From Candidatus Methylacidiphilaceae bacterium (GTDB lineage: Bacteria > Verrucomicrobiota > Verrucomicrobiia > Methylacidiphilales > Methylacidiphilaceae), in NCBI GenBank assembly GCA_028710285.1, contig JAQTUK010000001.1, positions 1 to 59,060 of the forward strand: a stretch of 59,060 bases of DNA. Reading direction: 5' to 3'. Of the stretch, positions 44,316 through 59,060 are shown piece after piece. The stretch's first letter is position 1. Each line of letters opens with the position of its first letter. Under the pieces are notes generated by a model. That model searched no databases. It was not told the DNA's origin and saw only the letters and a list, made by a program, of their open reading frames with translations. The translations under genes were made by a program, and so were the position numbers.

Positions 44316-44456
44316 CCTTTCGAGTTAGCGGAAAGGCTGGAAAGAGGCCAGCCCAAAGGAAGGAGTGGGGGGATCTTGGTCGGTGGGGAGCCGCCGGAGC
44401 CGGAGGAAGCCGCTTTTTCTCCTGGAAGGAGCGCAGCCGGATGATTAGCATATTCC

Positions 44457-45845
44457 GTGCCTTCCCTAGGCCTTTTCCAGTCTGTCCGGCTCAATCAGTC
44501 GCTCTCTCCGCAAATGCAGCAGTCTTTGGCCCTGCTGCAGGCAGCCTCGGTCGAGCTGCGTTCTGCGATTGCGCAAGAGCTCTTGGCCAACCCCGTCCTG
44601 GAAGAGGAGCTCGACGAGGTCCCCCCGGAGGAAGCGAGGGAGAATTCCCTGGAAGCCCTCGCCGAAACCGAGGAATCTTGGCGCGATTACCTGGGGCCCA
44701 CGGAGGCCAGGACCGGGATTGCCGAGGACTCCGAAGACAAACGCCAGTACTTCTTCGACTCGCAGGCGGTTCCCGAGACGCTGCCCGATTTCTTGACCCG
44801 CCAGCTCACGGCCACAACCAGCGACCGGGATCTGCTCCGCGCGGGGTTCGAGATCATCGGCAATCTCGACGCCCGAGGCTATTTGCGGGTCGACCTCGAA
44901 GAGGTCGCAAGCCGGACGGAACTCCCGCCAGACAAAACGGAGGAAGCGCTCCATCTGGTCCAAAACTTTGACCCGGCGGGGGTCGCCGCTCGCAACCTGC
45001 AAGAGTGCCTTCTCATCCAGCTCCGCCGACAGGGCAAGGGGCAGGAAGTGGAAGCCAGGATCGTGGAAGATCACCTGGAGCTCCTTGCCCGCAAAAAGCT
45101 TTCTGAAATCGCCAAGCTGCTTCGCGTTCCGCTCCCTCGAATCGCGGCCGCTGCCGGTTTCATTCGTGCCCTCCAGCCCAATCCCGGCGGCAGCTTCCGC
45201 CGAACCGAGCGGGAGGCGATCGTCGAAGTCGATCTTCGCGTGGAGAGGGTCGATGGGAAATGGACTGTCCTCACGAGCGAGGCAGCCATCCCGCGGCTAC
45301 GAATTAGCGGAGCGTATAAAGACCTCTTGCATGCCAATGGACAAGATCCCGGCTTGCGAAACTATCTCAAGGAAAAGATCCGGTCCGGCCGTTTCCTTCT
45401 TAAGTGCCTGCGCCTTCGCCAACAGACCCTTTCGGAAGTCGCTTCGGCGATCGTCGACTGCCAGACCGAGTTTTTCGATCACGGGCTCAGCCGTCTACGA
45501 CCGCTCACCATGGGAGAGATCGCCCGCCGGATTGGCATTCACGAAACAACGGTGAGCCGGGCGATCGCCAACAAGCATGTCGAAACTCCTCATGGGATTT
45601 TCGAGCTCAAGTACTTTTTCCGCCCTGGCTATCAAACAGCCAAGGGCGATCATCTTTCCAATCAGACCGTCAAGGCGGCCATCGAAGAGATGGTCCGCAA
45701 GGAAGACCCGAGAAATCCGCTTTCCGATCAGGATATCGTCGAGGTCTTCCGCCAGAAGGGGATTGCCCTTGCTCGCCGAACCGTAGCCAAATACCGGACG
45801 GCGTTGAAGATCCTTCCCTCCCACCTGCGTCGTTCGGCGGCGTGA
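44457..45845 (+). CDS. rpoN: RNA polymerase sigma54 factor
   Basis: Gln/Leu-rich region I; HETTVSRA; RpoN box ARRTVAKYR. Confidence 0.98.
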   Translation: MPSLGLFQSVRLNQSLSPQMQQSLALLQAASVELRSAIAQELLANPVLEEELDEVPPEEARENSLEALAETEESWRDYLGPTEARTGIAEDSEDKRQYFFDSQAVPETLPDFLTRQLTATTSDRDLLRAGFEIIGNLDARGYLRVDLEEVASRTELPPDKTEEALHLVQNFDPAGVAARNLQECLLIQLRRQGKGQEVEARIVEDHLELLARKKLSEIAKLLRVPLPRIAAAAGFIRALQPNPGGSFRRTEREAIVEVDLRVERVDGKWTVLTSEAAIPRLRISGAYKDLLHANGQDPGLRNYLKEKIRSGRFLLKCLRLRQQTLSEVASAIVDCQTEFFDHGLSRLRPLTMGEIARRIGIHETTVSRAIANKHVETPHGIFELKYFFRPGYQTAKGDHLSNQTVKAAIEEMVRKEDPRNPLSDQDIVEVFRQKGIALARRTVAKYRTALKILPSHLRRSAA

Positions 45846-45884
45846 AGGGAATCCAGCGGCTGCCGCGCAAGACAAAAGCGTGAC

Positions 45885-46931
45885 CTAACGGGCGTTTCCT
45901 TCGTGAATGATCGTTGGATCCAGCGGCCCGGTGACCAAAAGCTCCCCTCCCAATCCCTTCTCCTGCCTGGCGAAAAAGTGGTCGACGAGGGGATACGTCC
46001 CCGGAACCTTCGGAACGAATTCAACAAATCCGGCTCCCCCTGCCGGGACAAAAATCGAACAGCTATTCTCCATGGGGGGGGTCGCGATGCTGCCGTCCTC
46101 ATAGATGCGTTCGAAGATCGCTCCGAGCGCGTGCAGGTTGGAGGAGAAGTTCGGGCCAGCGTTCCCGAAATAAATCCGCACCTTCTGGCCGACGCGGGCG
46201 CGAAGGGGATGGCGGAGCAGCGAACCAACCGAGCCATTGAACACAAAGTAGTCCGGTTGCGCCTGCAGGATTTTCGAGAGATCGGACGCCAGCGGACCGG
46301 AGGCGCCGAAGGGGCCGGAAGTATAGATCTCCCCTTGCATGAAGTAGAATTCCCGGTCTGCCTTGGGGAGGCCGGCCGCCGGTTCCACCAGGATGAGGCC
46401 GTACATCCCGTTGGCGATGTGCTGCGAGATCACGGGCGTCCCGCAGTGGTATAGGTAGAGGCCGGGATTTAGGGCACGGAAGGTGAATACCTTCTCCGCC
46501 CCCGGGGCCGCCTGGGTGAGCGTAGCCCCACCCGAGTACCCCCACGCCGCGTGGAGGTCCACGGAGTGCACCATTCGGCTTCCGGGCTCGTTGAGAAGGT
46601 GGACCTCGACGGTGTCACCGACGCGGATCCGCAGGAAGGGGCCCGGCACTTTTCCGTCGAAGGTCCAGTACCGGAAGGTGGCCCCATCCGTCAGTCTCCC
46701 CTCGATTTCGCGAGCTTGCAGGTCGATTCGAACCAGCTTCGGGGCTCTCCTCGGCAGGGGTCCCGGAAGATCGGAAGGGTCCCGGCTGATATCGGCGGCC
46801 AGGGTGCGGGTCTCGGTTTCGGAGGCTCGACCGAGCGGGAGGGACATAGCCGGCACAATGCCGCTCAGCAACAAAAGGAGAATCCGCGTATTCCTCCACC
46901 GGGACCCGGGAGCTCCCTGTCGCGCATGCAT
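45885..46931 (-). CDS. nirK: Copper-containing nitrite reductase (NO-forming)
   Basis: HSVDLH, YLYHCGTPVISQHIANGMYG, SSNLHALG, YPLVDH; signal-like N-terminus; start uncertain. Confidence 0.92.
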   Translation of the reverse strand: MHARQGAPGSRWRNTRILLLLLSGIVPAMSLPLGRASETETRTLAADISRDPSDLPGPLPRRAPKLVRIDLQAREIEGRLTDGATFRYWTFDGKVPGPFLRIRVGDTVEVHLLNEPGSRMVHSVDLHAAWGYSGGATLTQAAPGAEKVFTFRALNPGLYLYHCGTPVISQHIANGMYGLILVEPAAGLPKADREFYFMQGEIYTSGPFGASGPLASDLSKILQAQPDYFVFNGSVGSLLRHPLRARVGQKVRIYFGNAGPNFSSNLHALGAIFERIYEDGSIATPPMENSCSIFVPAGGAGFVEFVPKVPGTYPLVDHFFARQEKGLGGELLVTGPLDPTIIHEGNAR

Positions 46932-47091
46932 CGTCACCGAGCATAGCCCTCCGAAGAGGGGAGTCAATGACCCAGTTCCTCTCTGGAGGGAGGCGATGTG
47001 CCCGTCTGCTTCCTCCGAGCTTGATCCTCTTCCTGCCGCAGGTCGACCGGCCATTCCCCGGCAAAAGCGACGCGGAGGCGGAGTTGCCCTT

Positions 47092-47131
47092 GCTATTCGA
47101 CCGTTGGCAACCGCTGCATCTCTTCGGCGGC
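47092..47131. repeat. 40-bp direct repeat, left copy (displaced gene 3' end, att-like)
   Basis: GCTATTCGACCGTTGGCAACCGCTGCATCTCTTCGGCGGC; 39/40 identical to 57541..57580. Confidence 0.95.
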
Positions 47132-47147
47132 TCGCACGCCTATCCCT

Positions 47148-48101
47148 TTAGGAGCACGCTGGATGAGCTGGCGAAGCATTCTCCGCCCTGTCCCGGATGA
47201 GCTGCGGAATGATCGAGCGGCAGAGTTCAAGGAAGGCGCGCTCTGCTAATCCCGGTCGTTTCCCCTTGAGGCTGAGAAGACCCCAGCTCCGCCGGAGCGG
47301 GCTCCGTCCTAAGGGTACCGCCACCACCTTCCCGTCCTCGACGGTTCTCGGAATCGCCCAACGAGGTAGAATGCCGATTCCCAGTCCGTACGCCGTCATG
47401 GCGCGAATCGCCTCGACGCTTCCCAGTTCCGCCAAGGTCCTCAACCGCAAGCCCTGTCGAGCAAAGTAGCGATCGACCAGCTGGTAGGTTTCACTCTCCT
47501 TTAGAGGGAGAAGGAATGCATAGCGCTCGATATCGCGCGGCGGCGCCTTTCGCCCCGCAGCCCATGGGTGAGAAGGGTTGACCGCAAAGACAAGCTCCTC
47601 TTCAAAGAGCCGCTCGAAGCGAACGGAGGCCGGCAGCCGCAGTGGGCGGGTCACCAGTGCGACTTCCACGCTCTTTCCCCTAATCAGCTCGAGGGCCGGA
47701 ATTGCGCTGACCGGCGTGATGGCCCAGGTACTCGCGGGAAAGCTCTCCTTAAACTCCCGGAGCACAGCGGGTAGCAGATCGTCGCAAGCGCTCGGGTCGG
47801 CGGCGAGCCGCAGGGATCCCGTTCCTAGGTGCTCCGATGCCTGGAGCTCCTCTCGCAAGAGGACTGTCTCCGCCAAAAGGCGCCGGCCGCGGGATAGCAG
47901 CGTCTGGCCCGCACTCGTCAGCGAAACCTGCCTCCCCGATCTCTCGAGCAACCGGGCGCCGATCTCTTGTTCCAACGCCGCCACGGCTCGGCTCACGGCC
48001 GGCTGGCTCAAGTGGAGCCGCCGACTCGCTTGCGTGAAGCTTCCGCTTTCCGCCACGGCGATGAACGCGCACACCTGCCGAAGATCGATCAGGGCTTCCA
48101 T
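47148..48101 (-). CDS. LysR-type transcriptional regulator
   Basis: AESGSFTQASRRLHLSQPAVS..LE, LTSAG; divergent from the NrtA-like gene. Confidence 0.96.
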   Translation of the reverse strand: MEALIDLRQVCAFIAVAESGSFTQASRRLHLSQPAVSRAVAALEQEIGARLLERSGRQVSLTSAGQTLLSRGRRLLAETVLLREELQASEHLGTGSLRLAADPSACDDLLPAVLREFKESFPASTWAITPVSAIPALELIRGKSVEVALVTRPLRLPASVRFERLFEEELVFAVNPSHPWAAGRKAPPRDIERYAFLLPLKESETYQLVDRYFARQGLRLRTLAELGSVEAIRAMTAYGLGIGILPRWAIPRTVEDGKVVAVPLGRSPLRRSWGLLSLKGKRPGLAERAFLELCRSIIPQLIRDRAENASPAHPACS

Positions 48102-48166
48102 CAATGTCCATTGCTTATCGCAGTTATGTTCGATCCGCAACATTGGGAATCCCGACCGAAGGCTCC

Positions 48167-48183
48167 CTGGCATAGTCCCTGCT
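48167..48183 (+). promoter_or_regulatory. sigma54 promoter of the NasS/NrtA-like gene
   Basis: CTGGCATAGTCCCTGCT; GG-N10-GC. Confidence 0.75.
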
Positions 48184-48202
48184 TCCGTGGATGCGGACCT
48201 CT

Positions 48203-49258
48203 ATGGCACAGTCTCACCGTTTCCCCGGGCGACCGAGCGTACGGGTGGGCTTTGTCCCGCTGGTCGACTGTGCTCCTTTTGCTGTTGCTGAGGAGATGGG
48301 CATTTTTCACCGCTGGGGGCTGCAGGTCCGACTCGAGCCGCAGCCGGGCTGGGCCACGATCCGGGACAAGGTACTCTACCGGGAGATCGATGCGGCACAT
48401 GCGGCCTGCGGTCTGCCCTATTCGGCGCTCCTCGGGATTGGTTGTGTCCCATCTCCGGCTCTGGTGAGCCTCGTCCTAAACCTGCAGGGAAATGTGCTCG
48501 TCCTTTCTAAGCGTCTGTGGGAAGAGGGCGTCCGAGATTCCCGCGCCTTCCGGCTCTTCGCCGCTCGGTGCGGCCGCAAGCCCGTCTTGGCCGTGGTTTC
48601 TCGCTTTTCTACGCACCATTTTCTGCTGCACTCCTGGCTCCGGAGCGGGGGGATCGACCCCGATCGGGATGTCTATATGCCGGTCCTCCCACCGGCGCAG
48701 ATGGCGGTACACTTGAAGGAGGGCTACCTCGATGGATATTGCGTCGGAGAGCCGTGGGGGTCCGCAGCGCTGGTGGAAGGCTTCGGCGCCTGCGTCGCCA
48801 CCAGCGCCGACTTGGCGCCCAACCATCCAGAAAAGGTTCTTCTCGTCCATCCCCGCTTCGCGCTCGACAATCCGGAGGCGCATACCGCCTTGGTCGGGTC
48901 CCTCCTGGAAGCCTGCTCCTGGTGCGATCTTCCGGAGAATCGCCCAGTTTTGGTCGATCTGCTCGCGAGCCGACGCTGGCTCCACCTCCCCAGAGATTGG
49001 CTGGCACCTAGCTTGTGCGGCCCCTATCCCGGTCAAGCGAGCCTCGTTGCCGGAAGCCGGTTTATGATCTTTTCGGGGGCGACGGCCAATGATCCGGGTC
49101 CCGAGCGGGAAGAGTGGATCTGGCGCAATCTCGTGGCGACCGGAGTCGTCTCCCCGACTACGACGCGCCCTTCGGCGATCTTCTGGCGGGACGCCTACCT
49201 GGCCGCCAAACGCCGGGTGCAGGTGTCGAGTGCTGCCTCCGCCGCCGCGGTCTCATAG
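48203..49258 (+). CDS. CmpA/NrtA-family nitrate-binding protein lacking signal peptide (NasS-like sensor)
   Basis: GFVPLVDCAP, WATIRD, LNLQGN, STHH, GYCVGEPW, HPEK. Confidence 0.85.
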   Translation: MAQSHRFPGRPSVRVGFVPLVDCAPFAVAEEMGIFHRWGLQVRLEPQPGWATIRDKVLYREIDAAHAACGLPYSALLGIGCVPSPALVSLVLNLQGNVLVLSKRLWEEGVRDSRAFRLFAARCGRKPVLAVVSRFSTHHFLLHSWLRSGGIDPDRDVYMPVLPPAQMAVHLKEGYLDGYCVGEPWGSAALVEGFGACVATSADLAPNHPEKVLLVHPRFALDNPEAHTALVGSLLEACSWCDLPENRPVLVDLLASRRWLHLPRDWLAPSLCGPYPGQASLVAGSRFMIFSGATANDPGPEREEWIWRNLVATGVVSPTTTRPSAIFWRDAYLAAKRRVQVSSAASAAAVS

Positions 49259-49340
49259 GAACTGCAGGAAGGAGTCATCCTTCCCTTCGTCCTTTTCCCA
49301 GGAATAGCCCGTCGACTTCGCAACCATTCTTGGACCGTAG

Positions 49341-49388
49341 ATATGCGTAATACGCATATAACATATCTGAACTATGCATATATAGCAT
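49341..49388. promoter_or_regulatory. Two ATGC-N7-GCAT (T-N11-A) LysR-type operator boxes
   Basis: Perfect palindrome ATATGCGTA-A-TACGCATAT at 49341-49359; ATGCATATATAGCAT at 49374-49388; cores 31 bp apart. Confidence 0.7.
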
Positions 49389-49406
49389 CCTTTCCAGGCG
49401 GAGAGA

Positions 49407-49422
49407 TGGCATGGCGCCTGCT
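49407..49422 (+). promoter_or_regulatory. sigma54 promoter of the nitrate/nitrite reductase operon
   Basis: TGGCATGGCGCCTGCT; GG-N10-GC. Confidence 0.8.
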
Positions 49423-49433
49423 TTTTTGAGTTC

Positions 49434-51632
49434 GTGCATTCTTCTGCGCCATTGTGGGTGGATCGAAAGAAAGATCTGGCGGCTCGGCGGCCAACGGGAA
49501 GCGGGACAGCGACTCACTGCCCGTACTGCGCCTTGCAATGCGGGATCAAGGTGCAGGTTGGCCCTGCGGGACCCCTGGTCCGGCCAAGACCCTTTCCCGT
49601 CAACCGGGGAGTTTTGTGTCCCAAAGGATGGGCGGCGGCAGAGTTGCTGCGCCATCCGGACAGGCTCCGCACGCCGCTTGTGCGAGAGGCCAAAGGCGCC
49701 CCGCTTTCTCCTCTTCCTTGGCCGGAAGCCCTGGATCGTACTGCGGCGGCCATCCGGCGGATCCAGTTAACCTACGGCCGCCACTCCTTTGGCCTCTTCG
49801 GTGGGGGAGGGCTCACCAACGAAAAGGTCTATCTTCTTGGAAAGTTCGCTCGGGTCGGTTTGAAAACTCGCTCGATCGACTACAACGGCCGCTTCTGCAT
49901 GTCTTCGGCCGCCGTTGCGATGAAAAGGGCCTTCGGCCTCGATCGCGGGCTGCCTTTCCCAATTGCCGACATTTCCGGGGCCGAAGTCGTCGTTCTTGTG
50001 GGAGCCAACGTCTCCGAAACCATGCCTCCCCTGGAGCAGTATCTGAAGGAGCAACGGAGTCGAGGAGGCTCTCTTATTGTGATCGACCCAAGGAGAACGT
50101 CGACAGCGTGCCATGCGGATCTTCACCTTCCGCTCCGGCCAGGGAGCGATGCAGCTTTGGCCCTTGGTCTCCTCCACTTGATCCTTGCGGAGGATCGGGT
50201 GGACTGGGAGTTCGTGGCGAAGCGGACGGTCGGATTTGAGGAGGTCCGGAAGCAAGCCATCGCGTTTTGGCCCGAGCGCGCGGCTCGGCTGACCGGGCTC
50301 TCCCCTTCGCAGCTTCGGGAGGTGGCTTCCCTTCTGGGGAAGGCCAAAACTCTCCTCGTCCTCTCGGGCCGCGGCCAGGAGCAGCAGAGCGAGTCCGTCG
50401 GCAATCTCTCGGCGTGGATCAATCTCTGTCTTGCCTTGGGCAAGGTGGGGAAGCCCTTCTGCGGGTTTGGCTCGCTCACAGGCCAAGGCAATGGCCAGGG
50501 AGGACGAGAGCATGGGCAAAAAGCGGATCAGCTACCTGGCTATCGCAGCCTCGAGGCGGCGGAAGACCGGACCCATCTTTGCCGGTTCTGGGGGATTGCG
50601 GAGGAAGAGCTGCCCCATTCCGGACCGACAGCGGAGCCCCTTCTTCGAAGCTGTGGAGAGGCTGGCGGGCTCCAGGGCCTGCTCGTGATGGGATCGAATC
50701 CCGCGATCTCGGCTCCGAAAAGCCTGGAGGTAATGGAGCGGCTCCGAAACCTCGAATTTCTCGTCGTATCGGATTTCTTCCTATCGGAGACAGCTGCACT
50801 CGCGGATGTCGTGCTGCCTGCCGCACAGTGGGCGGAGGAGGAGGGGACCATGACCAATCTCGAAGGCCGGGTCATTCTCCGAGAGCGCGCGCTGGCCCCA
50901 CCTCCAGGGGTATGGAACGACCTGGAAATCCTCCACGCCCTCGCCGAGCGTCTCGGGTGGGGAGAAGCCTTTCCCGCGGAGGCGATTCAGGTATTTGACG
51001 AGCTGCGACGGGCGAGTGCCGGGGGAGCGGCGGATTACTCGGGAATCTCCTATCCCCGCCTCCGCCAGGGCGAAGAGCTCTTCTGGCCCTGTCCAAGCCC
51101 CGGCCATCCGGGTACTCCCCGGCCCTTTCTCGATCAATTTGCAACCCCGGATGGCAAAGCCCGATTCCATCCGATCCAGGGTTTAGGACCGGCCGAGACT
51201 CCCGACTCTGCTTTTCCTCTCTGGCTGACGACCGGACGCCTCCTTGTCCACTACCAATCGGGAACCCAGACTCGGCGATCTCCCACTCTGCTTCGCCTGG
51301 AATCGGAACCGACGGTGGCGATCCACCCAGAAATGGCTAAGGGGCTCAAGATCGAGGCCGGAGATCGGGTACGGGTCAGCACCCGCCGCGGCTTCGTGCG
51401 TGCGGTAGCGCGGATTTCCAAAGGCCTTCGGATGGATTGTCTCTTTCTCCCCTTCCACTGGGGAGGGGAAGGCTCAGCCAACCGTGTGACCAATCCGGTC
51501 CTCGATCTGGAGTCGGGCATGCCCGAGTTCAAGTGTTGCGCCGCTCGTGTGGAGCGGGAGAGCGAAGGGTGCTCGAACCCGGAGATAAACCCGTTTGAAG
51601 GGAAACCAGAAAACCTAAGGAAGAATCCATGA
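49434..51632 (+). CDS. nasA: Assimilatory nitrate reductase catalytic subunit (Mo-bisPGD, 4Fe-4S)
   Basis: HCPYCALQCG..LCPKG, NGRFCMSSA, TGQGNGQGGRE, EEGTMTNLEGR, LTTGR, PEFK; start GTG 49434 or 49458. Confidence 0.95.
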   Translation: MHSSAPLWVDRKKDLAARRPTGSGTATHCPYCALQCGIKVQVGPAGPLVRPRPFPVNRGVLCPKGWAAAELLRHPDRLRTPLVREAKGAPLSPLPWPEALDRTAAAIRRIQLTYGRHSFGLFGGGGLTNEKVYLLGKFARVGLKTRSIDYNGRFCMSSAAVAMKRAFGLDRGLPFPIADISGAEVVVLVGANVSETMPPLEQYLKEQRSRGGSLIVIDPRRTSTACHADLHLPLRPGSDAALALGLLHLILAEDRVDWEFVAKRTVGFEEVRKQAIAFWPERAARLTGLSPSQLREVASLLGKAKTLLVLSGRGQEQQSESVGNLSAWINLCLALGKVGKPFCGFGSLTGQGNGQGGREHGQKADQLPGYRSLEAAEDRTHLCRFWGIAEEELPHSGPTAEPLLRSCGEAGGLQGLLVMGSNPAISAPKSLEVMERLRNLEFLVVSDFFLSETAALADVVLPAAQWAEEEGTMTNLEGRVILRERALAPPPGVWNDLEILHALAERLGWGEAFPAEAIQVFDELRRASAGGAADYSGISYPRLRQGEELFWPCPSPGHPGTPRPFLDQFATPDGKARFHPIQGLGPAETPDSAFPLWLTTGRLLVHYQSGTQTRRSPTLLRLESEPTVAIHPEMAKGLKIEAGDRVRVSTRRGFVRAVARISKGLRMDCLFLPFHWGGEGSANRVTNPVLDLESGMPEFKCCAARVERESEGCSNPEINPFEGKPENLRKNP

Positions 51633-54115
51633 GAAACGAAATCGCTCAGTCTTTAGTTTGCCCCCAGGAACGGCCGCGGCTGATCGTGGTTGGAGCAGGC
51701 ATGGCCGCCGCTCGGCTTCTGGAAGAGATGAAAGCGGGCGGCGGTCTCGAGCAGTGGAATGTGACGCTCATTGGAGAGGAGCGATCCTGGCCTTACAATC
51801 GGATTCTGCTCTCCTCGATCGTGCAGAAGAGCTACAAGCCGAAGGAGATCCTGCTCCAGGCCCCGGAGTGGTATCGTGAGAGTGGGGTCCGCTCCCTCTT
51901 GGGGAGGCGCGTGGAGCGAATCGATCGGGCAATGGGGTTTGTCCACACCTCCGATCGGAGCCTGCCCTACGACAAGCTCATCCTGGCAACCGGCAGCCAG
52001 CCACTCCTCCCGCCGATTTCCGACCTCCAAACCGCAGGAGGCAGCCTTCGCCCGGGTGTCTTTGTCTTCCGTACGGTGGAAGATTGCCGGCGGATCATGG
52101 ACGCGGCCGGAAACTGCCGCCGGGCGATTGTGATTGGCGGAGGTCTTCTCGGTCTTGAGGCGGCTTATGGGCTGCTTGCCCACGGGTTAAGCGTCCATCT
52201 TGTCCACCTGCAGGGCCACTTAATGGAGCAGCAGCTCGACCCGACTGCAGGCGCCGTCTTACAGCAGGCCGTAGAACGGAAGGGGATCGTCGTTCATCTT
52301 CGTTCGGAGACCATGGCAATCCTCGGGGAGGGGGAGCGGGTCGAAGGGATTCGCCTGAAAGATGGGAGGACTCTTTCCGCTGACTTGGTCATCGTCGCTG
52401 CGGGCATTCGTCCGAACGTGAGCCTTGCCAAGAGCTGTGGCCTCCCGGTGGGGCGGGGAGTCATGGTTGACGACAGGCTGTCCACTCCTGATCCCCACAT
52501 TCATGCGATTGGCGACTGCTCCGAGCATAGGAATCAGGTTTATGGACTCGTGGGTCCCGCCTGGGAGCAGGCAAAGACTCTCGCCGATCTGCTCACGGGA
52601 AGAAACCCGGAGGGACGCTATCCAGGCTCCAAAATCGCAACCCGTCTCAAAATCGCCGGAATCGATCTGACCGTCCTGGGGGAGACCGAACCGAAGAGCC
52701 TAGAGGACGAACTGGTTCTGTACAGTGAACCGAACCATGGGGTCTACAAGAAGCTTCTGGTTCGCGAAAATAGGGTAGCGGGCGCCATCATCCTGGGTGA
52801 CGGCTCCAAAGGGGCCGAGCTCTTAAGCCTCTTCGATCTCCAGACTCCTCTTCCCCCCGCCCGCGCGAATCTCCTTCTGGGTCCACTCCCCGGCTCAGGA
52901 GCTCTCCAGGCGACAGCTGAGGCAGACGAACAGATCCTCTGCTTCTGCAACGGCGTCAAAAGGGGCGCAATCCGCCAAGCGGTGGAAGGAGGATGTCGAA
53001 GCCTTTGGGCGCTCGGCCAGACAACGCGAGCGACCACCGGCTGCGGCTCTTGCAAGAGCAGCGTGGCAAAGCTCCTGGAGGAGCTCTTGGGAGCCGCTCC
53101 AGAGGAGGATCCGAAGGCGCACTACTACGTGCCCGGGGTGCCCCTCCCCAAGGCCGATCTGGTCGCCGAGATCCGCCGCAGAGGCCTCCGGTCGGTTTCG
53201 GCGGTTTTTCGAGAACTTGCTGGTGGCCGCGAAGACGCTGCGAGCAAACCGGGCCTGGCCTCCCTCCTGAAGAGCCTATGGAAGGAGCAGTATGAGGACG
53301 AGCGGGATGCCAGACATACCAATGATCGGGTTCACGCGAACATTCAAAAGGACAGCAGCTATTCTGTCGTGCCCCGGATCTACGGGGGGGTCGTTACCCC
53401 CTCCGAGCTGCGCCGAATCGCGGATGTTGCGGAGAAATACAAGGTCCCGATGGTGAAGATCACCGGCGGACAACGGATCGATCTGCTCGGGATAGGAAAG
53501 GAAGAGCTGCCGGCCGTTTGGCGAGATCTCGGGATGCCATGCGGCCACGCGTACACCAAGGCATTCCGCACCTGCAAGACCTGCGTGGGTACCGAATTCT
53601 GCCGGTTTGGACTGGGAGATTCGACCTCTCTCGGTGTGGCCCTGGAAAAGCGATTTCAGGGTCTGGAGACTCCTGCCAAGGTGAAGATGGCCGTAAGCGG
53701 CTGCCCGAGAAATTGCGCCGAGGCGACCACCAAGGATCTTGGGGCCATCGCCATTGAGTCGGGTTGGCAACTCTACGTGGGCGGAGCCGCTGGATCCCGG
53801 GTTCGAGCGGGGGATCTTCTGGCGACCGTTTCCGACCCGGAGGAGGTGCTTCGGATCTCCGAGAGGTTCCTCGCCTACTATGGAGAAAATGCCCGGTATG
53901 CCGAACGGAGCTACCACTTCGTTGAGAGGATCGGGATCGAGCGTCTTCGCTCCCTCCTTGTCGAGGACGCAGAAGGGCGGGGAGAGGAGCTCGAACGCCA
54001 GATTTCCCAAGCGATCTCCGCCTATCGGGACCCTTGGCAGGAAGGAGAGCACCCGGTCGAACCGGGTCAATTTCAAGCCGTAAAGGATCTGCCTATGGTG
54101 GAGGGAGTCAAATGA
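51629..54115 (+). CDS. nirB: NAD(P)H-dependent siroheme nitrite reductase large subunit
   Basis: GAGMAA, GGGLLGLE, CFCNGV..CGSC, HANIQKD, KTCVGTEFC, SGCPRNC. Confidence 0.96.
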   Translation: MRNEIAQSLVCPQERPRLIVVGAGMAAARLLEEMKAGGGLEQWNVTLIGEERSWPYNRILLSSIVQKSYKPKEILLQAPEWYRESGVRSLLGRRVERIDRAMGFVHTSDRSLPYDKLILATGSQPLLPPISDLQTAGGSLRPGVFVFRTVEDCRRIMDAAGNCRRAIVIGGGLLGLEAAYGLLAHGLSVHLVHLQGHLMEQQLDPTAGAVLQQAVERKGIVVHLRSETMAILGEGERVEGIRLKDGRTLSADLVIVAAGIRPNVSLAKSCGLPVGRGVMVDDRLSTPDPHIHAIGDCSEHRNQVYGLVGPAWEQAKTLADLLTGRNPEGRYPGSKIATRLKIAGIDLTVLGETEPKSLEDELVLYSEPNHGVYKKLLVRENRVAGAIILGDGSKGAELLSLFDLQTPLPPARANLLLGPLPGSGALQATAEADEQILCFCNGVKRGAIRQAVEGGCRSLWALGQTTRATTGCGSCKSSVAKLLEELLGAAPEEDPKAHYYVPGVPLPKADLVAEIRRRGLRSVSAVFRELAGGREDAASKPGLASLLKSLWKEQYEDERDARHTNDRVHANIQKDSSYSVVPRIYGGVVTPSELRRIADVAEKYKVPMVKITGGQRIDLLGIGKEELPAVWRDLGMPCGHAYTKAFRTCKTCVGTEFCRFGLGDSTSLGVALEKRFQGLETPAKVKMAVSGCPRNCAEATTKDLGAIAIESGWQLYVGGAAGSRVRAGDLLATVSDPEEVLRISERFLAYYGENARYAERSYHFVERIGIERLRSLLVEDAEGRGEELERQISQAISAYRDPWQEGEHPVEPGQFQAVKDLPMVEGVK

Positions 54116-54567
54116 CTCGGTCGATTCCGCCGGGAAGGGACGCCTGGGTCGACCTTGGGCTCATCGGGGCAATCCCGCCCGGCCAGGGCCGCTGTTTCCG
54201 GGTTGCCCACTCCATGATTGCGGTTTTCCATCCGCGGAGCGGAACTCTTCGAGCACTCGATGCGGTCTGCCCTCATCAGGCGGGAAGGCTTTGCGAAGGG
54301 GTCCTGGACCAAGAAAAAGTGCTCTGCCCACTGCACGGCTTTGCCTTTTTGCTGCAGACGGGAGAGGGATCCGGGCATGCGCACTCCGTCCGCTCCTATG
54401 AGATCCGAATCACAAGCGGGCGGATTCTGGTGAGGATTCCCGTCTCTCCCTTGGAGGAAGGATCTTTGGCGGCGGAAAAAGGAGAGCAACACATCCAATC
54501 GCTTCCCGCCACCAGAAAAGGGCCACGCAGGAAATGGCAACCTGCTGCTCGAGGGAAAAAGCGATGA
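54112..54567 (+). CDS. nirD: Nitrite reductase small subunit (Rieske)
   Basis: CPHQAG..CPLHG; ATGA overlap with nirB. Confidence 0.9.
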   Translation: MTRSIPPGRDAWVDLGLIGAIPPGQGRCFRVAHSMIAVFHPRSGTLRALDAVCPHQAGRLCEGVLDQEKVLCPLHGFAFLLQTGEGSGHAHSVRSYEIRITSGRILVRIPVSPLEEGSLAAEKGEQHIQSLPATRKGPRRKWQPAARGKKR

Positions 54568-54752
54568 ACCGCACCGCCTTGGTTTTCACTCTACCGCACG
54601 GATTCCACCCTGTCGCGACCGGTTGCTTCCCAGGAAAGAGAGGAGCCTCCACGCCCTCTACGGATCTCCAGAGGATCGACCAGAATTCCAGGGATCGAGA
54701 TCCGCTCTCGGAAAAGATCGGCCTCGGTCCCCATGTGGAACAGGGAGGGTAG
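54564..54752 (+). CDS. Possible 62-aa small protein
   Basis: ATGA overlap with nirD stop; GAGGG upstream; stop abuts the globin SD. Confidence 0.3.
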   Translation: MNRTALVFTLPHGFHPVATGCFPGKRGASTPSTDLQRIDQNSRDRDPLSEKIGLGPHVEQGG

Positions 54753-54766
54753 AAGGAGATAAGCCG

Positions 54767-55234
54767 ATGGATATCAACGTCGAATTGATCAAGCAGAGTG
54801 GAAAAGCCATTCAAAGGCTGGGGCCCAGGGTCACGGAGTATTTTTACAACCACATGTTTACCCATTATCCGGAGGTTCGACCGCTATTCCCCCCGCATAT
54901 GACCGAGCAGCAGAGACGACTCTTCGAGGCGCTGCTTTTCCTTGCCGAACATGTCGACCGTACAGAGCAGCTCGTTCCCTATCTGAATAGCTTGGGCGTG
55001 AGCCATATCCAGTATAACACCCGACCCGAACATTATCCGATCGTCGGCCGGAGCCTGCTCGCAACGCTCCAACATTTTCTCGGGCCCGCGTGGACCCGAG
55101 AAATGGCGGAATCTTGGATCGCTGCCTACAACCTCGTCGCGACCATCTGCATCGAGGCGGCTTGCGCGGCAATGAAGTCCGATCGTTATCTGCCACTGAC
55201 CTTGGCCGATGCGCCCTCAATCGCCCTCCGCTAG
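54767..55234 (+). CDS. Single-domain 3/3 globin (flavohemoglobin-globin/Vgb-like)
   Basis: FY (B10), PEVRPLF (CD1), Q (E7), LGVSH (F8), PEHYPIVG, W..AY; SD AAGGAG. Confidence 0.92.
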   Translation: MDINVELIKQSGKAIQRLGPRVTEYFYNHMFTHYPEVRPLFPPHMTEQQRRLFEALLFLAEHVDRTEQLVPYLNSLGVSHIQYNTRPEHYPIVGRSLLATLQHFLGPAWTREMAESWIAAYNLVATICIEAACAAMKSDRYLPLTLADAPSIALR

Positions 55235-57275
55235 AAGCAATCCGTTTTGGGCGGACTGGCTCCCAAGAGGGAAGCGAGTCGTTTGCCACGGCGAAAGTGC
55301 GCTGAACCAAACTTCGCATCTGGCAAGCCAGACCCCCTTTTTGACTCTTTTTGCATCCTTTCTCTACTTCGACCTTAGTTTTGCGGTCTGGGTGCTCTTC
55401 GGAGCCCTCGGAAACTTCGTTGCCGCGGATTTCCGGCTCTCCCCCTGGCAGAAAGGGTTTCTTGTGGCTGTGCCCGTTTTGAGCGGAAGCCTTTTCCGAA
55501 TTGCTCTCGGGTGGGCGGAGACCCGCTTCGGCGGGAAGAGAGCGGCGCTGACCGGGCTTTGCCTCACCGCCCTTCCCCTGCTTTGGGGGTGGAAAGGAGC
55601 CTCCCACCTATGGGAGCTGCCCGCGATCGGCATCCTCCTGGGAGTGGCCGGGGCGAGTTTTGCCGTAGCACTGCCCATGGCTTCCCGCTGGTTCCCGCCA
55701 GAGAAGCAGGGCCTTGTACTTGGCCTGGCAGGGGCTGGCAATAGCGGCACGCTCTTCGCGACGCTTTTTGGCCCCTATTTGGCTTCGCGCCTCGGATGGC
55801 ATGCGGTCTTTGGATTGGCCCTCCTCCCCATTCTGCTGACGTTTCTTGTTGTGCTGGTCCTAGCGCAAGACGCTCCGGGAACAAGAGCAACGTCCAATAG
55901 GCTGAGTCAGTTCCGACAGGTTCTACGGCTGTCGGACACCTGGGTCTTTGCCCTGCTCTATAGCGTCACCTTTGGTGGCTTTATCGGCTTCACAAGCTTT
56001 CTTGCTTTTTTCTTCTTCGATCAATACGGGGTGAGTAAAGTCTCCGCCGGCCTGTTGCAGACGCTCGTGGTTGCTGCTGGCAGCTTCATGCGTCCTGTCG
56101 GAGGCTACCTAGCCGATCGCCTCGGTGGGTGGCGCCTCCTTTGCGCTCTCCTGGTCGGGGCCGCCTTCTGCTCTCTTGCGACAAGCTTTTTCCTGCCGCT
56201 CCCCATCGAGGTCGGGGCGTTTGTTGTTTTCCTCGGCTCCCTTGGGATGGGAAATGGAGCGGTCTTCCAGCTCGTGGGCATACGCTTGGGACCTCAGATC
56301 GGCCTTGTCACGGGCCTCATCGGGGCGGCAGGTGGATTGGGCGGCTTTCTGCTTCCCCTCTGCCTTGGGCTGATCAAGTCAACGACAGAGTCCTACGCCA
56401 CCGCTTTCTTCCTTTACGCAAGCGCGCTTGCGATCGCCGCGCTCATCAGCATCCGAAGCCAACGACGCGCAAAGACATTGGCCATGAAGACGTCTGCCTC
56501 AGCCGTATGCCTGATTGGCCTCGCATCGATTCCTCTTTGGGCAACGGGTCCGCTTTGGGGAGCACTGCCGAATCCTTCCCTTCCAGAAGACGACGGTGTC
56601 CTTGGTCAGGAAACGAAAACCAATCGTAAGTCACTTTCAGCCTCAATCTTCTATAACGAGCCCGACACGTCGAAGCGCGCCCCGGGCAGCTGGTTCCTGA
56701 GCATCGGAACTGGCGCCGGGTTTCCCCACTACTCAAGCGGCGACGTAGTCAATCGCGTCACCGGGGCTGTGGAGCCACTCGAAGCTAATGCCAGCTTTGC
56801 TGTCTCTTCGCTTCTCTCGATTGGGTACCGCTGGTTTAATCCGGAGCGCTGGGGCCACTGGTCCTTCGACGCTGACTTTGTAGGCGCCTACCTAGGGACA
56901 GGCGTCTCGGGCGTCCAGGTTCGGGATCACATCAATCTAGGCTTCCTGGGACTGAGGGGACGGATCGGCTATCGGGTGCTGCACGACCAGTTCGAACCAT
57001 TCCTTGGCTTTTCTGCCGGCGCGGTGATCGATAACGTGGAAACCGCCGGCCTCGATCACGGCGCGCTCTGGGGCTACTGGGTTGCTCCTACTGGTGGCAT
57101 TCGGTTGTACATTCCTCAAACACGTTGGTCGATCACCGTGGAAGGACTTTTCCGGTTCGTCGGAGGACTGAACGGGTTCGATGGAGGCCCAGGACTCGCC
57201 ATGAATGAGACACCAGGTGGTAGTCACTGGATCTATGTGCCCTTGGGGGTGGTGGCAATCGGCTATCGTTTTTGA
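55209..57275 (+). CDS. NarK/NNP-family MFS nitrate transporter fused to an outer-membrane beta-barrel
   Basis: GASFAVALPMASRWFP, GAGNSG, TFGGFIG, RPVGGYLAD, GMGNGAVFQ, GAAGGLGGF; then in frame from 56484 a signal-like segment and a barrel ending AIGYRF; start uncertain. Confidence 0.88.
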   Translation: MRPQSPSARSNPFWADWLPRGKRVVCHGESALNQTSHLASQTPFLTLFASFLYFDLSFAVWVLFGALGNFVAADFRLSPWQKGFLVAVPVLSGSLFRIALGWAETRFGGKRAALTGLCLTALPLLWGWKGASHLWELPAIGILLGVAGASFAVALPMASRWFPPEKQGLVLGLAGAGNSGTLFATLFGPYLASRLGWHAVFGLALLPILLTFLVVLVLAQDAPGTRATSNRLSQFRQVLRLSDTWVFALLYSVTFGGFIGFTSFLAFFFFDQYGVSKVSAGLLQTLVVAAGSFMRPVGGYLADRLGGWRLLCALLVGAAFCSLATSFFLPLPIEVGAFVVFLGSLGMGNGAVFQLVGIRLGPQIGLVTGLIGAAGGLGGFLLPLCLGLIKSTTESYATAFFLYASALAIAALISIRSQRRAKTLAMKTSASAVCLIGLASIPLWATGPLWGALPNPSLPEDDGVLGQETKTNRKSLSASIFYNEPDTSKRAPGSWFLSIGTGAGFPHYSSGDVVNRVTGAVEPLEANASFAVSSLLSIGYRWFNPERWGHWSFDADFVGAYLGTGVSGVQVRDHINLGFLGLRGRIGYRVLHDQFEPFLGFSAGAVIDNVETAGLDHGALWGYWVAPTGGIRLYIPQTRWSITVEGLFRFVGGLNGFDGGPGLAMNETPGGSHWIYVPLGVVAIGYRF

Positions 57276-57540
57276 CCGGTCATGCCCCGGGGGTTGCGCA
57301 GCTGGGGCCTGCGGTGAGGTCGGCAGAGGATCGCCGCCGGTACGCCAACACCGCGCCGGTCAATCGGAGAACAAAACGGACAGGGCAATTCCGGGTCCTC
57401 CCAGTGCAAATCCACCGCGAAAAAGGCCTTCACTCCGGCGTAAGGATATTTGAGTACGTTTTTCGGAGCGGATGAACGGCGTCCCCCTCGGGAATAGGAA
57501 AAAACGGGAAGCTCCAACGCAGAGGGCGCGTGCGAAAGCC

Positions 57541-57580
57541 GCTACTCGACCGTTGGCAACCGCTGCATCTCTTCGGCGGC
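57541..57580. repeat. 40-bp direct repeat, right copy (3' end of gene 57542..58420)
   Basis: GCTACTCGACCGTTGGCAACCGCTGCATCTCTTCGGCGGC encodes AAEEMQRLPTVE-stop on the minus strand. Confidence 0.95.
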
Positions 57581-58420
57581 CTTCTTTGCCCGGACGAGCT
57601 GTTCGCGGAGCGCCTTCTCGGTCGCCTTCCGCTGCGCTTCCAGCGCCCGCTCTTCCTCCCGAAGCCGGCGGTGGAGCTGTCGCTCCTGGTCCAAGAGCTC
57701 CTTCTGCTCCTCCTTCTGCTGGGCGAGCTTCTTCGTGAGGGCGATCAGCTTCTTGTCTTCGGGGAGCAAGGCTGGTTTCCGTCCGACGGGAAGCTTCTTG
57801 GGAGGGCGGACATCGTCCCGCGCCATGTTCGGCGGGCGCTTCTTGGAGATCCGAGGGGAACTCGGTGCTTCCTGCGAAGCGGGAGCGGATGGAATGATCG
57901 ACCGGGAGGGAACCGGGTGAGAGGAAGCCGGGAGCGTTGCCATGCTCTTTTTCCGGGTGAAGGTGCTCGGCAGAGGTTGAGTTTCCGCTGCAGGAGGAAA
58001 CCGGTGGACGACAAAGACGCCGTCAAGAGACTCGAGCATGTATCCGTTCGCCCGCGCGCCCGCCTTGGCCATCGAGAGGGGATCGAGGTCGTAGAAGACC
58101 GAGTTGACCATTCCCTGCACATCCGGGGTGGGGATGTAATTGGTGCCCGCCCGCTGGGCCATGGCTTGGAGAAAGGCGTTCAGCGGCATCCCGAGAATGT
58201 GATACGCCTTGGCCACGGCTTCCTCCTCCGGCTTTTCCGACGGCCGTTCAAAAGATGCGGAGGCGGCGCTCCGCCCGGGGCGAAAATCGACGTCGAATTG
58301 CGTCGGGGGGGCGGCAGCCCGCTTGCGCCATCCACCCGCCCCATCCTGTCCCCAGGAGGGAAGAAGGGAGAAGCCAAGGAGACTTCCCACTAAAAGAAGG
58401 AGCAAAGGCAGCAATTTCAT
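57542..58420 (-). CDS. Exported protein with secretin N0/STN-like domain and C-terminal coiled coil
   Basis: Signal peptide; MPLNAFLQAMAQRAGTNYIPTPDVQGMV..GYML; Pro-rich linker; long E/K/R coiled coil. Confidence 0.6.
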   Translation of the reverse strand: MKLLPLLLLLVGSLLGFSLLPSWGQDGAGGWRKRAAAPPTQFDVDFRPGRSAASASFERPSEKPEEEAVAKAYHILGMPLNAFLQAMAQRAGTNYIPTPDVQGMVNSVFYDLDPLSMAKAGARANGYMLESLDGVFVVHRFPPAAETQPLPSTFTRKKSMATLPASSHPVPSRSIIPSAPASQEAPSSPRISKKRPPNMARDDVRPPKKLPVGRKPALLPEDKKLIALTKKLAQQKEEQKELLDQERQLHRRLREEERALEAQRKATEKALREQLVRAKKAAEEMQRLPTVE

Positions 58421-59034
58421 CGTCCCGGCGAAGTAGGATCAATAAAGATCTCGTTGACCGGAGCGCCCGGCCCTCCGCTCGGGCGGGGCCAGGGGACGCG
58501 AACCTCCGTCCCTTCCTCGTCTCGAAGAACGAGGCAGTGTCGGTCGATCTGCGCGATTCGAGCTTTGCAAAGGCCGGAGGGCGTTCGAATCACGAGCGGT
58601 TCGCCTGGGTGGTAAACTCTGCCTCCCACGATCACCTCATGGCCCTCGAGATAGCCCCAAATCGGCAGGTAGGAAGCGAGGTTGGAAAGGGTGATCGGAG
58701 GTTCCGCGCTCTGCGCCGATCCGGTTTCAAACGCGCCATTCGCCGGCAACCCGAACGCATCGACTCCACCGGGAGGGGCAAGGGGCATGCTGCCCGTCGG
58801 CTTTGGCGTGGGAATGGGGACGCTCCGCAGGTCGCTTGCCGATCGTTCCCCGGCAAGATTGGCTGACGCATCCGCCTGGGCGGCTGCATGGGTTACTCTG
58901 CCAATCTCCCACCCAGGTTTTCGGTTCGGAAGGAAAAGGAGAAAGAGGAGAAGGACAATCAACCCCAGGAGAACGAGGGTTGTCGCAGACAGGGATCGTT
59001 TCACTCCCGGGAACGGGGGCTGTTCCCCTTTCAT
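58417..59034 (-). CDS. Membrane-anchored protein, GspB/PilP-like C-terminal beta domain
   Basis: N-terminal TM; VIVGGRVYHPGE..IAQIDRHCLVL; frame stays open to the window edge, so the start may lie outside. Confidence 0.55.
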   Translation of the reverse strand: MKGEQPPFPGVKRSLSATTLVLLGLIVLLLFLLFLPNRKPGWEIGRVTHAAAQADASANLAGERSASDLRSVPIPTPKPTGSMPLAPPGGVDAFGLPANGAFETGSAQSAEPPITLSNLASYLPIWGYLEGHEVIVGGRVYHPGEPLVIRTPSGLCKARIAQIDRHCLVLRDEEGTEVRVPWPRPSGGPGAPVNEIFIDPTSPGR

Positions 59035-59060
59035 CTCCTGCTGCGGATCATTCTGGTTCA

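Follow-up and report, generated by a model that had tools for sequence, protein, structure and literature searches.

An in-frame fusion of a NarK-type nitrate transporter, an internal signal-peptide-like segment and a predicted outer-membrane β-barrel in a Methylacidiphilaceae bacterium

In a 59,060-nucleotide stretch of contig JAQTUK010000001.1 from a Candidatus Methylacidiphilaceae bacterium (assembly GCA_028710285.1; the whole stretch is called the window here), a frame of 688 codons on the + strand (55209–57275) runs without a stop from a NarK-type transporter of the major facilitator superfamily (MFS) through an internal signal-peptide-like segment and a linker into a predicted 8-stranded β-barrel. 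An earlier note on the window, made from its letters alone, had described an open NarK frame running into RSQRRAKTLA-MKTSASAVCLIGLASIPLWATGPLWGA and a C-terminus of GYRF, and both the frame and its translation agree with that description.

This fusion is real and, on the available evidence, not a sequencing error. The earlier note had raised a sequencing error as an alternative, and the state of the data lends some support to an assembly or sequencing artefact that deleted the narK stop: the source genome is a 227-contig assembly (96% complete), and the contigs that cross the junction have depths of 4.6–6.6 and come from two separately assembled runs of one study (2 of 4 runs cover the junction). 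Against this, both contigs, one possibly the source itself (X1, depth 6.6) and the other from a second sample (X2, 56167–56870, depth 4.6), are identical to the window letter for letter over the junction, each with 0 other letters and 0 gaps, and the narK tail differs from those of relatives by 44–119 bases, not by one base. An artefact is extremely unlikely on these grounds. X2 represents essentially the same strain over 14.7 kb (comparison of 44400–59060); the data show that one real strain carries the fusion and do not extend to a wide distribution.

The start of the frame is less secure than its continuity. The ATG at 55209, from which the earlier note began the gene, falls within the upstream globin gene, and a DNA alignment of five loci places the narK starts of same-genus relatives (ATG or GTG) at a CTG (55302–55304, +) that lacks a Shine–Dalgarno (SD) sequence. 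Judging from this alignment, the CTG is likely to be the true narK start, giving a product of 657 residues in place of the 688 counted from the ATG. Such a start would suit a silent or dying gene that makes little NarK and in which the fusion is tolerated through low expression, as would the lack of a narK match with this query in 4 of 8 same-genus genomes. We consider this explanation quite improbable: the nitrate-assimilation genes upstream are all intact, as are the transporter motifs; the narK starts of two relatives (G004 and G005) likewise lack an SD sequence; and the branch of the window's NarK on the tree is not longer than those of its relatives (0.12 versus 0.14–0.29). No promoter-like site was found in 54400–57700, and terminator-like sites there occur at chance level.

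The NarK half spans residues 45–415 (55341–56453, +), as delimited by MFS_1, TIGR00886 and sequence motifs. Residues 50–383 match MFS_1 (E 1.9e-37; 129 bits, cut-off 33.4), and among NCBIfam families the NarK model TIGR00886 scores best (E 1.7e-78), with 264 bits, below the cut-off of 311.7. The 12-helix MFS fold is borne out by a simple hydropathy scan, which resolves 11 peaks in the domain, and by an alignment with NarK relatives that covers the domain over its full length. It contains arginine motifs at residues 94 (SLFRI) and 293 (FMRPVGG) and glycine motifs at 174 (AGAGNSG) and 372 (GAAGGLGG), which we take to correspond to the two intramembrane arginines and the glycine-rich nitrate signatures of NarK/NasA porters. 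With NarK/NasA by far the best family, this half is predicted to be a nitrate transporter. It is the single TIGR00886 match in the genome, and a search for an NtrB permease there gave nothing at 96% completeness.

Beyond the final MFS helix, a basic linker, RSQRRAKTLA (56454–56483, +), appears to be a shortened narK tail that reads into the barrel frame. The basic stretch is followed by Met426, encoded by the ATG at 56484, and by a signal-peptide-like segment (residues 426–451; 56484–56561, +) whose sequence anatomy includes basic, hydrophobic and small-residue regions. Its best 11-residue hydropathy, 2.37, lies within the range of 17 stand-alone members of the barrel family (1.88–2.79), and from MFS topology we infer an N-in/C-out orientation. 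The family pattern P-L/V/I-x-A gives two candidate cuts, after A445 (PLWA/T, nucleotide 56543) or after G451 (PLWG/A), in place of the WGA/LP site proposed in the earlier note, which would put Trp at −3. PLWA-TG-PLWG at 56530–56565 resembles an 18-base tandem duplication that yields the two candidate sites. A hydrophilic linker of 41 residues follows (56562–56684, +), with low model confidence and the family's E-D-G-V motif; the same linker and signal occur in stand-alone barrel paralogs. Genes for LepB and BamA are present in the genome. The internal ATG, described in the earlier note as having no clear SD sequence, indeed has no match, with a pairing energy of −1.1 kcal/mol as opposed to −4.3, −8.4 and −5.9 at three orthologous barrel starts; the anti-SD used is a generic one, as no 16S tail turned up in the assembly. 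Because an SD sequence is missing here, unlike at the orthologous starts, read-through from narK is the likelier source of the barrel.

The C-terminal half (56685–57272, +) ends in G-Y-R-F and is, on modelling, an 8-stranded outer-membrane-type barrel of the OmpA/NspA kind, a prediction drawn from its paralog family, an AlphaFold2 model and structure matching. The window's barrel has no Pfam or NCBIfam match; 2 of 18 members of its family give weak Pfam matches (E 4.5e-4 to 0.02), and AlkL is reached at E 0.03 with the profile. The AlphaFold2 model, built from 18 sequences, has a mean predicted local distance difference test score (pLDDT) of 71, with core strands above 90. Its closest structural match is NspA (Z 20.1, root-mean-square deviation 2.6, all 155 residues aligned), followed by OmpA (Z 17.3) and OmpW (Z 15.6), and Foldseek is concordant; the roughly eight amphipathic strands that the earlier note had read in this half are borne out by the model. 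The terminal Phe is almost invariant in the 18-row alignment of the family.

Of the 14 other genomes of the bacterial family, 13 hold a match to this paralog family, as against 0 of 26 genomes from other families of the order; the genome studied here has 4 matches. Each of the other copies inspected has its own N-terminal signal-like segment, and in the regions examined the neighbours of the paralogs are opgGH, arginine genes and others, with no nitrate genes among them. A Methylacidiphilum protein is 48% identical to the window's barrel. A profile search of 1.84 billion representatives returned 19 matches to the family; the single long one, tried as a second fusion, proved to be an unrelated cysteine-rich protein. 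As a class, 8-stranded barrels mostly lack a wide open anion pore. Because this barrel is 8-stranded and its paralogs lie elsewhere, it is not likely to pass nitrate, and its reading as a dedicated nitrate channel is not supported, being further weakened by the interruption of the copy behind narK in one relative (G007).

The fused gene is the last of an assimilatory nitrate cluster, all on the + strand. The preceding genes encode an NrtA/NasS-like nitrate-binding protein (48191–49258; PF13379, E 8.7e-70), a NasC-like assimilatory nitrate reductase catalytic subunit (49434–51632; NF047855, E 5.3e-227, below cut-off), the nitrite reductase large subunit NirB (51629–54115; TIGR02374, above cut-off), a NirD-like Rieske subunit (54112–54567) and, directly upstream of narK, a single-domain globin (54767–55234; PF00042, E 5.2e-15). 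The globin possibly handles nitric oxide in connection with nitrite reduction. It stands between nirD and narK in this genus; in the sister genus it lies two genes later, with a Roadblock domain. Directly upstream of the cluster (44457–48173) are an rpoN-like gene, the copper nitrite reductase gene nirK (45885–47054, −) and a LysR regulator (47148–48173, −). Beyond the fused gene, 57542–59034 (−) holds two genes without a clear Pfam match that by eye resemble secretin N-terminal and pilus-assembly-type pieces.

The origin of the fusion can be read from its relatives. narK of this type is present in 10 of 15 genomes of the bacterial family. In three genomes of the same genus (G002, G005 and G007), the orthologous barrel gene is separate and directly follows narK; in a fourth (G004), the contig terminates within narK. 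The split pairs are the same two orthologs in the same order after the globin (72–79% and 65–73% identical), with a stop for narK and an SD-led start for the barrel, neither of which the window retains. In G002 the narK stop and barrel start overlap as ATGA (CCA TGA) and in G005 as GTGA, and G007 has a short gap between them. Comparison with the G002 locus identifies ATGA at 56484–56487 (+) in the window as a relic of the barrel's ancestral start. Between the NGAVFQ motif and the ATG of the barrel lie 231 nt in the window, 350 in G002 and 275 in G005, and this shorter narK tail puts the TGA of ATGA out of frame. The fusion is likely, from these sequences, to have arisen by shortening of the narK tail. 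On the NarK tree the fused protein branches from within the split relatives, so the fusion is the derived state. A frame of 642 residues in G005 was considered as a second fusion and rejected, its extra length being an upstream off-frame stretch.

Conservation of the fusion across related species was not found, as the genes are split in all three same-genus genomes that have both. The earlier note had treated separate genes in every relative as evidence against its proposal; the separation holds locally, and NarK–barrel joins recur elsewhere. A recent stop loss, which the note had listed as an alternative, we take to be the origin of the fusion, and it is compatible with cleavage of the product. 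Pairwise ratios of non-synonymous to synonymous substitution rates (dN/dS) are 0.11–0.16 for narK and 0.10–0.12 for the barrel when compared with the orthologs linked to narK. All 5 of 5 genomes of the sister genus have, instead of the small barrel, a gene for a TonB-dependent-receptor-like protein that shares an ATGA overlap with narK (L214:6509-8929 (−); L026–L029), with the domain tested in one of the five. By sequence comparison, the bacterial family has exchanged one outer-membrane partner for another behind narK.

Similar joins appear in other lineages. A search for long NarK relatives (at least 621 residues) gave 450 matches, of which we classified the best 120. Besides the window's frame, three among these 120 consist of NarK, a hydrophobic segment, a small-residue cut motif and a Phe-ending barrel. 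The barrel of P0005 belongs to the alginate-export family, and a near-identical copy (P0123) comes from a second source; that of P0008, a singleton, is OprO/P. With the barrel of the third, P0011, as query, 3 of 15 matches carry an MFS domain, which added P0141 and P0142. P0011 and P0141, each a fusion, share 89% identity, with P0127 in the same group, and P0142 is 47% identical, has a different junction and is accompanied by two further full-length cluster members. The barrel of this Myxococcota set (P0011/P0127/P0141 and P0142) is modelled as a 12-stranded FapF/COG4313-like channel with a pLDDT of 95.

At 80 genome loci of the Myxococcota barrel (L111–L190), nirB, nasC or nrtA is nearby in 37 and narK in 11; narK is directly upstream in 7, of which 2 are fused. 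This barrel is a candidate outer-membrane nitrate/nitrite channel, better supported in that role than the window's. In Kofleriaceae, split pairs overlap by ATGA (L112) or GTGA (L113), and the fused L111 aligns with them with a changed junction; the sequences indicate the same path from overlapped pair to fusion as in the window. Among 138 genomes of the bacterial family of L111, this NarK occurs in 14 and the barrel fusion in 2, and no further barrel fusion was found among 401 genomes of that phylum. Long frames in G861, G700 and G596 were rejected as barrel fusions on inspection, as were those in G443 and G445, which are NarK–NarI-like. Unfused barrel genes of the alginate-export type lie near narK at 4 of 80 metagenome loci listed.

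A NarK tree of 44 rows, which omits P0123, P0127, L111 and L115 because they nearly duplicate rows already in it, requires 5 changes to account for its six fused rows, and well-supported branches force every one of them. The NarK–signal–barrel join appears to have arisen five separate times, the window included, and a single origin is not plausible because four unrelated barrel families are involved. In sequence terms, the fusion described here is recent and strain-limited, one of these five independent joins. Other long NarK forms were also seen. About 100 of the 120 listed matches (P0017–P0122) are a conserved fusion of roughly 740 residues between NarK and a NarI (nitrate reductase gamma)-like membrane domain with a C-terminal Cys-x-x-Cys pair, which was seen in Acidobacteriota and in two Kofleriaceae genomes (L203 and L204). 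In two Myxococcota genomes (L217 and L218), NarK-like transporters end in what by eye looks like a UspA-type domain.

What becomes of the fused chain? The C-terminus of an MFS protein lies in the cytoplasm, basic residues remain on the inner side of the membrane, and a terminal Phe serves the β-barrel assembly machinery (BAM). The sequence features of the window suggest that the product is probably a precursor that signal peptidase I cleaves into an inner-membrane NarK and a predicted outer-membrane barrel. NarK would insert co-translationally with its C-terminus in the cytoplasm, the basic linker would keep the next hydrophobic segment N-in/C-out, and the barrel part would be driven via SecYEG to the periplasm. 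LepB would cut after PLWA or PLWG. NarK, the one nitrate importer detected in the genome, would then function with the signal retained as a 13th helix, and the released barrel, a normal mature one, would reach BAM by its terminal G-Y-R-F. The fusion would swap translational coupling for strict 1:1 synthesis. In this strain it has most likely been tolerated, not selected, and nitrate need not be what the barrel carries.

Were the signal instead to stay uncleaved as an anchor, the barrel in the outer membrane would remain tethered to NarK and form a two-membrane nitrate path, the envelope-spanning conduit of the earlier note. The 41-residue flexible linker between anchor and barrel, the Gly in place of Ala at −1 of the second candidate site and the repeated occurrence of outer-membrane genes downstream of narK would all accommodate such a conduit, which is nonetheless improbable. 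The linker and signal occur equally in stand-alone paralogs and hence are not adaptations to tethering; the barrel fold is small, with 8 strands, its paralogs lie away from nitrate genes and its G007 counterpart is broken; a periplasmic tunnel domain is missing; and in P0011 the barrel domain begins within a few residues of the cut motif. According to PMC4817254, LamB A23D, whose signal is uncleavable, remains at the inner membrane of Escherichia coli instead of being assembled in the outer one, and it is toxic, a toxicity that favours cleavage over tethering.

Several findings weigh against a functional cleaved precursor. First, the probable narK start is a weak CTG. Second, the fusion with this barrel is confined to one strain: its protein cluster (P0002) has 1 member from 1 contig; searches of the bacterial family, the phylum and protein clusters found the same fusion nowhere else in the lineage; in 301 genomes of the phylum, with 11 narK matches, only the window's frame is long; and 0 of 78 closed narK frames are fused among the 80 metagenome loci listed, which are generic NarK loci from 19 of 64 parts scanned. 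Third, the barrel behind narK in G007 is broken by an insert of about 175 bases. Fourth, the dN/dS values cover the time before the fusion and are no proof of selection on the fused form. Fifth, fused or long forms elsewhere include doubtful ones: a TAA lies inside the fused narK of L111; P0128 (a cluster member of 395 residues on a 1985-base contig) ends where the junction falls and may be either split or truncated; and singleton long NarK frames joined to cytoplasmic or inner-membrane neighbours (NirB, a formate/nitrite channel or NrtA) occur among the matches listed. We regard these singleton non-barrel joins as a background of read-through or assembly error. The G007 insert itself (G007:C1:1006407-1006581, L211) has CTAG at both ends and terminal inverted repeats, resembling a miniature inverted-repeat transposable element.

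Several of these findings would be expected of a neutral read-through, in which NarK works while most of the barrel tail falls to degradation in the periplasm, or the barrel is made separately from an internal start at ATG 56484; the fusion would then be no more than a recently lost stop, heading for decay. The confinement to one strain, the singleton joins and the internal stop of L111 fit it, as does the dispensability of the barrel in G007, with three other paralog matches in the present genome. The barrel's own ATG is kept, and a missing SD sequence need not prevent its use, as about half of the long ATG-started frames in this genome lack one (48% of 970 reach −4 kcal/mol). Set against this are a barrel frame that is intact up to its terminal Phe and a signal segment that holds family-level hydropathy and a cut motif. 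The overlapping stop is gone, so that re-initiation is lost, and no SD sequence stands in its place. Further, P0005, P0011 and P0141 have no Met between helix 12 and the signal segment, although L111 has GGAG followed by GTG codons there, at which an internal start may occur. Neutral read-through is in our judgement unlikely, though it is the most serious alternative to the cleaved precursor.

The locus may be a fusion transition caught just after the event, with its ATGA still readable; it would show that a 12-helix transporter inserted co-translationally can carry an outer-membrane barrel for export as its tail, a view that we hold with about even confidence. If the cleaved precursor is correct, insertion and export routes can run in series on one natural chain, and signal peptidase can serve as a polyprotein protease across membranes. 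The case is readily testable, with a short junction, fused and split orthologs that coexist and five independent origins that act as replicates. It also carries a warning for annotation: frames of this kind are entered simply as MFS transporters, and their barrel is overlooked. Recurrence with other barrel families raises the interest of the class and lowers that of the window's single case, which may be neutral and is limited to one strain.

Normally, an outer-membrane barrel is exported as a precursor of its own, and a transporter of the inner membrane is inserted during its translation. With NarK/NasA porters (TIGR00886), the fused protein shares the MFS domain, the conserved motifs and a nasC–nirB–nirD neighbourhood, but its tail holds the signal segment and the barrel: 340 residues follow the NGAVF motif in the window, compared with 83–145 in closed narK frames at 78 loci elsewhere. 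The barrel has the fold and the terminal aromatic residue of NspA, the OmpA/OprF N-domain and OmpW/AlkL, but is just 8–14% identical to them, has no Pfam match and belongs to a family essentially restricted to one bacterial family. Unlike tripartite pumps and bridges of the LetB/TamB type, the fusion has no periplasm-spanning tunnel or adaptor and only the 41-residue, low-confidence linker.

Additional domains after helix 12 are known in the MFS. C-terminal fusions are varied in the parts of PMC8154325 and PMC10710835 that treat them, and the partners named in the latter, on Willson et al. 2019, are cytoplasmic regulatory domains (CBS, CNBD, PAS and UspA), whereas the partner in the window has an export signal and an outer-membrane fold. 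From the other side, the portion of the survey of 76 porin families (PMC4827864) that bears on fusions describes porins as seldom fused and names no inner-membrane transporter as a partner. We found no description in the literature of a NarK–barrel or transporter–barrel polyprotein, a novelty on which the tables of the 2019 MFS-fusion survey might bear; the statement in the earlier note that no NarK fusion to an outer-membrane protein was known agrees with the literature searched; among sequences, such joins recur with three other barrel families. The closest mechanism is that of FbcH of Bradyrhizobium japonicum, in which cytochrome b and cytochrome c1 come from one gene and cleavage is reported to have been shown by experiment. 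Both cases combine a polytopic inner-membrane protein, an internal signal peptide and a second exported protein, with release by cleavage predicted here, and at best, by analogy, the window's fusion would function like such a precursor. The products of FbcH both stay in the inner membrane, in one complex, whereas the second product in the window is a predicted outer-membrane barrel. The new aspect would be an internally cleaved type of precursor with predicted products for two membranes.

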